NCBI GenBank assembly: GCA_963665845.2
Contig: OY762492.1
Location: forward strand, 1,024,001 to 1,088,000
DNA: 64,000 nt
DNA from: Candidatus Poribacteria bacterium
GTDB lineage: Bacteria > Poribacteria > WGA-4E > GCA-2687025
Reading direction: 5' to 3'
Shown: positions 56,175-59,400 of the stretch, one piece after another
How positions within the stretch are numbered: position 1 is the stretch's first letter
How the letters are laid out: each line of letters opens with the position of its first letter
Translations under genes and position numbers: made by a program
The notes under the pieces: model-generated
Seen by the model: only the letters and a program-made list of their open reading frames with translations
The model's database searches: none
Told to the model about the DNA's origin: nothing

Positions 56175-56220
56175 GTAAAACCTCTCAATCTGCCCATTCA
56201 AGCAAGACGCGCCTGATTTG

Positions 56221-56388
56221 CCGACCTCACGCCGAAAGTTGGGACATTTGAACGAATGACTGCTCTATTCATGGGAAAAAAGCGTCATCAACCAGGTCGT
56301 CATTCCCGCGTAAGCGGGAATCCAGAGTCCACCCCGAAACCGTCCGCGTTTCCATGCCGACATGTCCCCACTAAAGACATGAGGTCAG
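56221..56388 (-). mobile_element. MITE copy 5 (168 bp) with perfect 7-bp target site duplication
   Basis: tgatttg at 56214-56220 and 56389-56395; ends ccgacctcacgccgaaagttgggacat / atgtccccactaaagacatgaggtcag; absent from the paralogous leader near 63100. Confidence 0.9.
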
Positions 56389-56417
56389 TGATTTGCCCTT
56401 GCGCCGTAGCTGCCCAT

Positions 56418-56447
56418 ATTGTAGGGCGCAAGCGGGCTAGAACGCAA
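56418..56447 (-). promoter_or_regulatory. Putative promoter of the first protease-WD40 gene
   Basis: TTGCGT-18 nt-TACAAT; both hexamers are conserved at 63133-63162 while the spacer diverges. Confidence 0.55.
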
Positions 56448-56494
56448 GCGGCTAGACCAGAACTCATTGCCCTCACTCAAGGGGCGAGATCCGC

Positions 56495-59400
56495 TTATTT
56501 TAAGACGACCATGCGCCGCAAAGCCGTGAACGAACCCGCCTCAATGCGGACATAATACACCCCGCTGGCGACAGGTTCGCCTAAGGCGTTCCGCCCGTCC
56601 CAATGGGCAGCTTTGCCGCGGCTGCGGTAGGTTCCAGCCGGCAATTCGCCCAGCTGTAAAACGCGGACGGTTTGACCGGCGGCGTTGTAGATCGTTATCT
56701 TGACGCGGCTCGCCTCCGTCAGATCGAACGGTATCCATGTTTCGGGGTTGAACGGGTTCGGGTAATTCGGCAGCAGAGCCGACTCGGCCGGTATAGCGGT
56801 CGCCAGCAGTTTGCCGATGTCTATGCGTCCTGTGGAGACAGACTCCTTGTCTAGAACGACGCGCATCGTCTGGACGCCGCCGAATGTCCCGCTGGAATCG
56901 GAAACGCGCAGGTCGAAGGCGTCGCCGATGGCGTAGCTGTCCCCTGTCAACGCCAGAAGCGGCAGCGAGAAACGGCCGGAAGCGGAGCCGCGGCCCGCTA
57001 TATCTGACGCGGTCTGTCCATTCTGCAGATTCGCAATGGAAATCTCCAAGCCGTTCAGCGGCGCCAGATTGTCCTCCCGCGCCACTGAACCCTCCGCCAC
57101 AAGAAGCGGCGTCGCGGACGGATCGTACGCAACCGCCTCCGCGGACGCGGCGGCAGTCGACGCTTCGTTTGACCATGCGGAGCCGTCGAAGGTCAAGACG
57201 GTTTCCGCTTCCGCCAAGATGAAATAGCCGTCGCCGCCTTTCGCCGCGTCGGTCGAGTCGGTGGCGAGCTGAAAAAGGGCGTTGCCGGAGTCGTCAACCT
57301 TCAAGGCGATAACGTTTAGCGGAACGGTTGTAAGACCCGCCAAATCGCCGATCGTCTCAACGGCGCCGGCGCGCGTGACGCCGATCATGTTCATGCCGGC
57401 GCGCAGCGGAACCTCCTGCTTCAAAAGCCCGCCCGTGAAGGTTACAGGCTTCGCATTCTTCATGGAGGCTAAAACGGCCGTCTCGTCGTACAACGGAAGA
57501 TCGGAACTGGAACCGGCAAGACCGTCCGCATACGACACGAAGCGGTTCGATGCGGGAGAATACGCCAAAAGAAACTGAACGTCTTGAGAACCGCCCAGCG
57601 CCGCGTATAGATCGCTCAACTTCTCTATCTCCGGGTCTTTCACCGGAACATGCAGCATGTTGAGACCCTGGCGCATGTTTATCGTGAAGGAAGTACCGCG
57701 CACAATGTTGACCGAGTATGTGTTGGAGGCTTCGTTGCTGCCCGCGGCGTTGGAGGCGGCGTTGGCGGGGACGCGCACCGTTACAGCGTCTACAGCGTCG
57801 CCGCTTGCCGGCTCAATGGTCGCCGTGTAGGATTTGCCGCTGCCGGCAAGGTTGGTCGCGGAGCCGTTGGTCACAATGATGTCGTCCAATGTGAAACCTG
57901 TAACAGCGGCGCTGAATTCGATCTTTACATTGAACGCGCTTGCCGGCGCTTCGCTCGGACCGGACACGGTCGTTGCTGGGGGAGGCGCCAGATCGCTGAC
58001 GCCCCAGATCCGAACCATGTTGTCGTCGCCGCCGCTGACGATCGTCTGACCGTCTGGAGAATACGCTACAGAAAAGACCCTGCCCGTATGTCCCTTGAGG
58101 GTTCGCATCCCCGCTCCCGTGTTGGCGTTCCAGACCCGAACCGTGGTGTCGAAGCTGCCGCTGGCGATCGTTTGGCCGTCCGGAGAATACGCCACGGACC
58201 GCGCCCAATCCTTATGCCCTTCAAGAGTTCGGAGATACGCGCCCGTGTTGGCGTTCCATATCCGAACCGTGGAGTCGCCGCCGGCGGCGGCGATCTTCTG
58301 ACTGTCCGGAGAATACGCCGCAGAAAAGACGCCAAGGGTATGCCCTCGAAGAGTTCGTATCGGATTTCTCGTATTGGCGTCCCACATCCGAACCATGGCG
58401 TCAACGCCGCCGCTGGCGAACGACTGACCGTCCGGCGAATACGCCACTGTATAGACCCAATTCAGATACTCGATGGTTTTGAGATGCGCCCCTGTGTCGG
58501 CGTCCCAGATCTGAATGGTGTCGTCGAAGCCGCCGCCGGCGATTGTCCGACCATCCGGAGAATACGCTACAGTAAGGACGCTATTTGAATGTCCAATGAG
58601 GGATCGAATACGCTCCCCTGTTTTGACGTTCCAGAGATGAACCGAGCCGTCGGCGGCGCCGGCAACGATTGTCTGACTGTCCGGTGAATACGCTATGGAC
58701 CTGACCCCAACCCTAAGTCCAGTGGGGGTTCGGATCTGGATGGTTCGGAGATGCGCCTCTGTGTTGACGTCCCAGATCCGAATCGTGGTGTCGCCGCTGC
58801 CGGTGGCGATGGTCCGACCGTCCGGTGAGTACGCTACAGAATAGACTGTACCCTGATGCCCTGACAGTATCTGTTGCCGGCGGTAGTCGACAGAGTAGGG
58901 TTCGGAGGCTTCGTTTTTCCCCAAGTCGCTGTCGACGGCGTTGGCGGGGATGTTCACGGTTACAGCGCCGTCGTTGGACGGCTCAATCGTTGCCGTGTAG
59001 GATTTGCCGCTGCCGGCAAAGCTTGTCACCGAGCCGTTGGTCACAACGATGTCGGACGATGTGAAACCTGTTACATCGGAGCTGAATAGTACCCTCAAAA
59101 AGAACGCGCCTGTTTGTGTAACGCTCGGACCAAGCACGGTCGTTGTGAGGCGGGTGGTAGGAACGGCAAGATCGCCGACGCCCCAGGTACGAACCGTCTT
59201 GTCTCGGCTGCCGCTGGCGATTGTCTGGCCGTCCGGAGAATACGTTACGGACCAGACATAATCCTCATGACCTTCAAGAGTTCGGAGACGCTCTCCTGTT
59301 TCGGCGCTCCATATCCCAATCGTTTTATCGGCGCTGCCGCTGGCGATGGTCCGGCCGTCCGGAGAATACGCCACGGACAGGACATAATTCGTATGTCCAG

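Follow-up and report, generated by a model that had tools for sequence, protein, structure and literature searches.

In a window of 64,000 nucleotides from a Candidatus Poribacteria bacterium (NCBI GenBank assembly GCA_963665845.2, contig OY762492.1, positions 1,024,001 to 1,088,000 of the forward strand), a 168-bp MITE (miniature inverted-repeat transposable element) lies in the predicted leader of a gene encoding a WD40-repeat protein. Analysis of its family, together with the Tn5-like (IS4-type) transposase clade that shares its ends, indicates that most of these elements insert in a fixed register: upstream of a predicted sigma70 promoter, the target-site duplication ends exactly 3 bp before the -35 box, likely because RNA polymerase holoenzyme bound to the promoter positions the transposase there. 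As deduced from the flanking sequences, the layout of the family, read outward from the element, is a duplication of 5-9 bp, 3 nt, the -35 box, 17 nt and the -10 box, with the predicted promoter left intact and pointing away.

Landing register of the MITE family

The genome assembly comprises 3.98 Mb and is 90% complete; its gene set of 3047 genes stems from a purpose-built codon model and not from a standard gene caller. BLAST retrieved 111 full-length copies of the element, 55 of which are exactly 168 bp long, with a second size class near 190 bp, and the median pairwise identity of the MITE copies is 82%. A profile of the 27-bp ends matched 517 times in the genome compared to twice in a shuffled genome, and pairing of ends over at most 300 bp gave 140 elements. 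Exact duplications of at least 5 bp flank 55 of the 140 pairs (mean 0.4 and maximum 4 in 1000 flank shuffles), their lengths being 5 bp (n=3), 6 bp (n=25), 7 bp (n=20), 8 bp (n=5) and 9 bp (n=2). Short and non-coding (the focal copy contains no open reading frame of 100 aa or more), bounded by inverted repeats and target duplications, present in many copies of uniform length and accompanied by a same-ended partner, the element qualifies as a MITE.

Among 40 genomes searched, full-length copies also occur in the same-genus genome G001; beyond G001, three of the 40 matched the internal palindrome of the element alone. Nine of 18 G001 elements could be mapped to the study genome on both flanks, and amongst these one site is empty in the study genome (L170), one carries the same insertion (L172) and one represents an independent insertion in the same promoter region (L166).

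Outward from 443 distinct element ends, the trinucleotide TTG is concentrated at offset 9 (66 occurrences), offset 10 (72) and offset 11 (28), compared to mostly 3-14 occurrences (maximum 18) at the other offsets along the flanks. Alignment of these 166 sites on TTG reveals a -10 box 17 nt further on (T 107, A 117, T 107). Counted from the edge of the duplication, TTG stands at +3 in 38 of the 55 MITEs with exact duplications (background 2.9%, binomial p ~1e-45), in all nine duplication-bearing MITEs among the 18 sampled from G001, in the one autonomous copy scored in genome G003 and in 38 of 39 autonomous homologues. In the 33 homologues scored for both values, the TTG offset follows the length of the duplication without exception (6 bp with offset 9, n=16; 7 bp with offset 10, n=15; 8 bp with offset 11, n=2). 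Either end of the element can face the promoter (35 left, 29 right, 8 both). An earlier sequence-only reading of the window had described a bias towards gene-upstream regions; insertion at a set position just upstream of -35 boxes, which that reading had not seen, accounts for it.

As a control served an IS4-like element in the same-class genome G025, for which 30 copies were sampled, 27 of them with duplications, of 9 bp. It shows no peak, with TTG at +3 in 2 of the 27 copies and at offsets 9-11 in none of 60 flanks. This control element (L020, L204-L232) is 1339 bp long and occurs in at least 40 near-identical copies, several of which lie within a G/C-run palindrome.

The sites carry further features expected of promoters. 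A strict -10 pattern (TAnnnT) follows at 16-18 nt in 97 of the 166 sites, whereas intergenic sites with identical first five bases would lead one to expect 19.3; for the homologues, the pattern follows in 56 of 64 sites, with 4.9 expected. Of the 97 sites, 96 lead into a co-directional gene. In the 27 elements lacking TTG, TAnnnT peaks at 26 nt from the duplication (6 matches, with no other offset exceeding 2), and use of weak TTGCG boxes goes together with the presence of a -10 box (17 of 23, versus 9% of controls). Where promoters flank an element on both sides, a duplication is nearly always missing (8 of 8 autonomous elements, p=0.0002; 11 of 12 MITEs, p=0.03), as would be expected if the two ends had joined separate promoter targets or if two copies had recombined.

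The partner transposase and its relatives

MITE-type ends also enclose a transposase gene of the PF01609 family (C1:561322-562588, 1267 bp), the only PF01609 gene in the genome. This insertion sequence (IS) has about 35 bp of one end and 27 bp of the opposite end in common with the MITE, the interior of which is otherwise unrelated. A search for transposase genes with such ends, suggested by the sequence-only reading, succeeded in one case, in which neither the 7-bp duplication it had foreseen nor any other target duplication was found. The catalytic core of the protein is intact (D87, D168, E267 and the YREK motif). After about residue 319, the reading frame leaves that of the homologues at a run of A, and a different frame, interrupted by a stop, holds the conserved C-terminal motif, which makes it probable that the genome's copy is crippled. 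A long-read error as the cause of this lesion was rejected, as one public contig spans the locus without differences, though that contig may derive from the source DNA. The active source of transposase thus probably lies outside this 90%-complete assembly, in which a young MITE subfamily is nonetheless present.

With the single transposase protein as query, a search of genome contigs returned nothing, whereas an alignment as query gave 146 relatives in GTDB genomes, of which the best 80 were kept. Both ends were identified for 68 of these and exact duplications for 39, which come from 25 assemblies, all labelled Chloroflexota. In records labelled Nitrospirota and Spirochaetota, TTG stands at offsets 9-11 without duplications; one record combines an archaeal label with bacterial-type flanks and may have been misbinned. 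The homologue from G003 (L015) is 61% identical to the partner transposase and has the same ends and a 6-bp duplication. A search of representative sequences for family size gave 258 proteins at E values up to 1e-30, a plasmid search yielded two partial matches, and a metagenome scan gave 5 loci that add little, 3 of them having the same flanks as G003 loci. A tree with long branches, constructed by a quick method, separates the clade (54 rows) from five other IS4-like proteins and conveys no order of events.

The autonomous elements are 1160-1330 bp long with 5'-CT ends and contain a single open reading frame in 49 of 53 scorable cases (68 examined). Their duplications range from 5 to 9 bp with a mode of 6-7 bp, 36 of the 39 exact ones measuring 5-7 bp. 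The signature Y-2-R-3-E-6-K is present in 107 of 120 homologues; the spacer between the two aspartates is 82 residues, which fits the IS4 criterion D(60-110)D(100-150)E, and that between aspartate and glutamate is mostly 98-99, at the lower border of this criterion. The genome's copy scores 77.7 bits against the NCBIfam IS4 model NF033591 (cut-off 152), and all 40 members of alignment A1 match this model (best E 7.7e-29). A sequence search of the PDB returned nothing; Tn5 transposase was found by fold search alone. The model of a full-length homologue (predicted local distance difference test score, pLDDT, 90) matches it with a Foldseek E value of 5e-11 and a Z score of 20.1 (root-mean-square deviation 4.8, 325 aligned residues), compared to 12.8 for the next match. 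Tested for a Mutator-type relationship, the transposase gave only PF01609 and IS4-type NCBIfam matches, and the Z score against ISCth4, which we take to be a member of the IS256 family, was 7.3.

Because a transposase gene with the same ends exists and the homologues make the same 5-9 bp duplications, we infer that the MITE is mobilised in trans by this transposase clade, which supports the sequence-only reading in its view of a non-autonomous element. Four copies that are 98-99% identical and have differing duplications lend this indirect support.

Two further observations concern the autonomous elements. The closest transposase relatives (P0001-P0008, also L026) break off at about residue 320-340, close to an A-rich tract and ahead of the conserved C-terminal helices; their sequences suggest a programmed frameshift in one lineage, with most of the clade being single-frame. 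At L026, L029, L045 and L085, one target duplication of the autonomous IS directly adjoins a short stretch that a second element end delimits, which suggests repeated insertion at the same promoter.

Mechanism, alternatives and known systems

If the polymerase guides insertion, the transpososome would dock at about -39 to -45. This is the position at which class II activators contact region 4 of sigma. Standard DDE chemistry would follow, with the promoter-side (template-strand) nick fixed and the far nick slipping, and this slippage would account for the variable length of the duplication. With the promoter intact and pointing away, most insertions would be close to neutral, and this would account for the high copy number of the family. 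Guidance by sigma70 or RNA polymerase is what we infer from the register; a complex prediction for the full-length homologue P0047 (alignment A2) with region 4 of sigma70 from the study genome (alignment A3), chains that come from different hosts, scored 0.00 against a mark of 0.32 and speaks neither for nor against binding. In its widest form, the claim would be that a widespread, uncatalogued Tn5-like clade present in several phyla independently evolved tethering to the sigma70 holoenzyme, inserting where class II activators bind and placing one nick at an exact base, 3 bp upstream of -35; here we consider the chances evenly balanced. The clade would then provide a single-protein integrase that senses promoter activity and is kin to the best-studied transposase, and the two-promoter elements without duplication would record promoter-to-promoter deletions or recombination.

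Several points weigh against guidance by the polymerase. Of the exact-duplication MITEs, 17 of 55 lack TTG at +3. A strict -10 is missing in 69 of the 166 TTG sites, including the focal one, and 7 of these sites lie within a second palindromic repeat that carries TTGAA, so a -35-like sequence alone may sometimes suffice. All flanking promoters are predicted from sequence. Nor do related elements count as independent cases, since a single inherited event may underlie some homologous insertions, e.g. those of L082/L085 and of L095/L096.

The sites lacking a -10 box fit a transposase that itself reads promoter DNA, recognising TTG(A/C) as a target arm that lies 3 bp away from the cut, aided by bendability or melting of the DNA and without contact to RNA polymerase. 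Conserved target arms are reported for some IS4 subgroups in the available text of PMC2266710, and TTGAC is indeed the commonest start of the sites (67 of 166). We nevertheless regard direct reading as unlikely, since sites sharing the same first five bases are used about 5-fold (study genome) to 11-fold (homologues) above expectation when a -10 box stands at 16-18 nt, a box that is 26-32 bp away from the cut, and since -35 boxes other than TTG retain the geometry. The motif is moreover one-sided, whereas the symmetry of a transposase dimer would lead one to expect reading of both arms.

Loosely intergenic insertion could be followed by purifying selection that spares only copies leaving promoters and genes intact, and such selection certainly acts, as none of the 140 paired copies lies mostly within a predicted gene. 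It is, however, unable to yield a single-base register tied to the length of the duplication, and the G025 control element lacks the peak, so that we give selection as the sole cause hardly any credence. The sequence-only reading had instead suggested that the element may retune the expression of surface genes. As an explanation of the pattern, this would mean that copies are kept, or guided to their sites, for their use as a regulatory cassette inserted between promoter and start codon. MITEs are able to affect expression according to the available text of PMC10969869, and the focal copy does lie in the predicted leader of a WD40 gene with a strong predicted RNA fold. Across the family this suggestion is not supported: surface-type genes are not enriched behind targeted promoters, with a surface-protein tail motif in 1 of 96 targeted genes versus 26 of 1345 genes (p=1.0) and signal-peptide-like starts, by a crude heuristic, in 22 of 96 versus 239 of 1345 (p=0.22). 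Outward-pointing promoter patterns flank 71 of the 140 elements and inward-pointing ones 10, and housekeeping genes are targeted too, a scan of 8 hand-picked genes including leuS, tyrS, ftsH and uppS as well as those for an EF-G, acyl carrier protein and IMP dehydrogenase, 7 named in all. Retention as a regulatory cassette is thus very improbable, and positioning of the transposase by the promoter-bound polymerase remains our favoured explanation.

A precedent for such positioning exists in Mutator-like transposases: TnGBS integrative and conjugative elements, the ISLre2 family and the ISKra4 group (p-MULT3/4) insert 15-17 bp upstream of -35 boxes of housekeeping-sigma promoters, and the authors, who suggest that the initiation complex is contacted through one of its subunits, call the property unusual among prokaryotic transposases (PMC3942029, in the text available). 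They share with the present clade a fixed distance upstream of -35 and near-perfect inverted repeats used in both orientations. As far as the same text describes them, they differ in belonging to the Mutator-like superfamily, whereas the present clade has a Tn5-like fold and the YREK motif, and in their distance of 15-17 bp, where TTG is at background level here and instead lies 9-11 nt from the element end. Also unlike these families, the present clade keeps the promoter-side edge of its duplication at one exact base and varies in the length of the duplication. The clade works like the Mutator-like promoter-targeting families and belongs to none of them. An analogy cited in PMC3942029 is yeast Ty3, whose integration is likewise placed by the transcription-initiation complex; in the portion available, Ty3 is a eukaryotic retrotransposon using RNA polymerase III factors with a demonstrated tether, in contrast to the proposed tether of the present clade.

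With the IS4 family (IS10, IS50 and ISPepr1 in the available text of PMC2266710) the clade shares 5'-CT ends, Y-2-R-3-E-6-K, the Tn5 fold and an IS10-like size, and by eye the consensus of the autonomous ends matches 6 of 7 positions of the IS50 end signature given there. It differs in its duplications of 6-7 bp, compared to 8-9 bp for IS10 and IS50, and the range of 5-9 bp overlaps that of ISPepr1 (7-8) only, the family criterion being roughly one turn of the helix, 7-13 bp by subgroup (PMC2266710, same text). Further points of difference are the aspartate-glutamate spacer of 98-99, which borders on the family range, the sub-threshold NCBIfam score of the genome's copy and, in a minority, the C-terminal frame shift. 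By the criteria in that part of PMC2266710, the clade is IS4-like with CT ends and fits no listed subgroup.

As MITEs, the Correia elements and Coxiella QMITE2 resemble the present family in being short, non-coding, intergenic and structured with inverted ends and direct repeats (PMC10969869, text available). QMITE2 also carries a repetitive extragenic palindrome (REP) targeted by an IS1111 element, as an IS110 element targets a REP-like palindrome here; in contrast, no fixed register to host promoters is described in that text, and Correia elements bring their own promoters.

The word "promoter" does not occur in the available text of PMC2266710, and no IS4-type promoter-directed insertion is described in what was accessible of PMC10433421, PMC10969869, bioRxiv 10.1101/2025.07.22.666184 and PMC1525189. 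In the literature covered, mostly open-access texts, promoter-directed insertion was found only for the Mutator-like family, and we provisionally regard promoter targeting in a Tn5-like clade as new to print; target sites are listed in the supplements of PMC2266710 and could bear on this. A second origin in a Tn5 relative of about 380 aa would make the question of tethering testable with a small enzyme of well-known chemistry and structure, for which the base-exact register offers a sharp readout. It would also account for the tolerance of a compact genome towards hundreds of element ends next to essential genes. In uncultured bacteria, the insertions would mark promoters, and the enzyme could serve for in vivo promoter mapping or as a safe-harbour tool.

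The focal insertion and other features of the window

The focal element occupies 56221-56388 on the minus strand and is flanked by TGATTTG on both sides (gene-side copy 56214-56220, second copy 56389-56395, both given for the plus strand). Imperfect terminal inverted repeats of about 26 bp had been described for it; they are present and measure 27 bp, the repeat at 56221-56247 (plus strand) resembling the partner IS end upstream of the transposase gene and that at 56362-56388 (minus strand) the end downstream of it. Upon removal of the element and one TGATTTG, the leader of the WD40 gene (51663-56174, minus strand, 1503 aa) aligns without gaps, counted from the start codon, to the empty leader (63065-63209, minus strand) of the paralogous WD40 gene 56495-63064, with 135 of 154 positions identical. 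This bears out the filled and empty leaders and the 7-bp duplication reported from the sequence alone. The element is also absent from another two leaders of paralogues, situated outside the window at C1:246424 and C1:251106. The empty site is the leader of a paralogue, not an allele, its heptamer having 5 of 7 bases in common with the target duplication. Four of the ten public runs listed were examined and revealed no empty allele, as no joint in their contigs skips 56221-56395; these contigs may include the source sample, and the sole one over the left junction covers only 30 bases of the element. With three relatives that are 98-99% identical, each with a different duplication, the focal copy belongs to a recent wave or young subfamily. 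Taken alone, it is a real, ordinary MITE insertion.

Its placement in the predicted 5' leader of the WD40 gene is atypical for the family and probably results from the +3 spacing being kept against a weak antisense promoter-like site. A -35-like hexamer TTGCGC (56399-56404, plus strand, antisense to the WD40 genes) stands exactly 3 nt past the duplication and is followed after 17 nt by a weak -10-like hexamer TAGGGC (56422-56427, plus strand), which fails the strict TAnnnT test; the copy is one of 21 amongst the 166 TTG sites that are not co-directional with a gene. In the opposite direction, this site overlaps the predicted sense promoter of the WD40 gene (56418-56447, minus strand), composed of TTGCGT (56447-56442), 18 nt and TACAAT (56423-56418). 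The earlier placement of the insertion between promoter and start codon depends on this tentative promoter: the arrangement is conserved in four paralogous WD40 leaders, but a consensus scan of 56100-56520 called neither a promoter nor a terminator. The focal copy likely homed on the antisense site, making the predicted leader 175 nt longer with a stable hairpin. A strong fold is predicted for the filled leader (-87.6 kcal/mol, z -3.2; empty paralogue z -0.2), with the ribosome-binding region outside the stem of the element, and on these models an effect of the copy on its WD40 gene is possible. The promoter region itself (56396-56434) is partly palindromic in all four leaders, with promoter-like sites overlapping on both strands, and is possibly a repressor site or an antisense promoter.

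The other four copies in the window, whose sizes and state agree with their earlier description, sit upstream and not downstream of promoter-like sites. From the 244-bp copy at 2369-2612 (plus strand), promoter-like sites point outward at either end, with TTG at 10 nt on one side and 9 nt on the other and with -10 boxes at 17 nt; no exact duplication is visible. The 168-bp copy at 8570-8737 (plus strand) lacks a duplication and is followed after 10 nt by an outward TTGACA and, 16 nt further, by TACGCT. That at 23100-23267 (minus strand), also 168 bp, has a duplication matching at 6 of 7 positions, 3 nt and TCGACA-17-TATGAT, while a decayed copy at 45706 to about 45880 (plus strand), between uvrD and a TonB-receptor gene, has outward promoter-like sites on both sides.

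The focal element contains a REP-like palindrome (56299-56322, plus strand), the target of a resident IS110 element. Genome-wide, the exact pattern of the palindrome is present 705 times, or 905 times if up to 2 mismatches are allowed, and another repeat, a G/C-run hairpin, 476 times; the palindromes often form tandem arrays, some within MITE ends, and in the window such palindromes or hairpins lie at 16813-16867, 40621-40671 and 51531-51572. No PF01797 (RAYT-type) gene that would account for the REP was found in the 90%-complete genome, and no Rfam family within the window. The IS110-family element (NCBIfam NF033542, above cut-off) sits at the same position of the palindrome in 10 of 10 copies inspected, often inside a MITE, for example at C1:3073389-3075095 (locus L012) and nine other places. 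It resembles known REP-targeting IS110 elements, and its non-coding leader of about 230 bp could encode a bridge RNA. An IS1595-family transposase gene (L012:122-934) adjoins the IS110-bearing MITE.

Tandem TonB-dependent receptor paralogues at 45959-48538 and 48692-51388 are 81-90% identical in stretches. The large repeat proteins of the window (WD40 or Big_12; 28776-39443, 51663-56174, 56495-63064 and 63210-64000) have a closely similar C-terminal coding region, annotated as FlgD-Ig or Por_Secre_tail in two of them, the core motif of which is present in 45 of the 3047 predicted genes.

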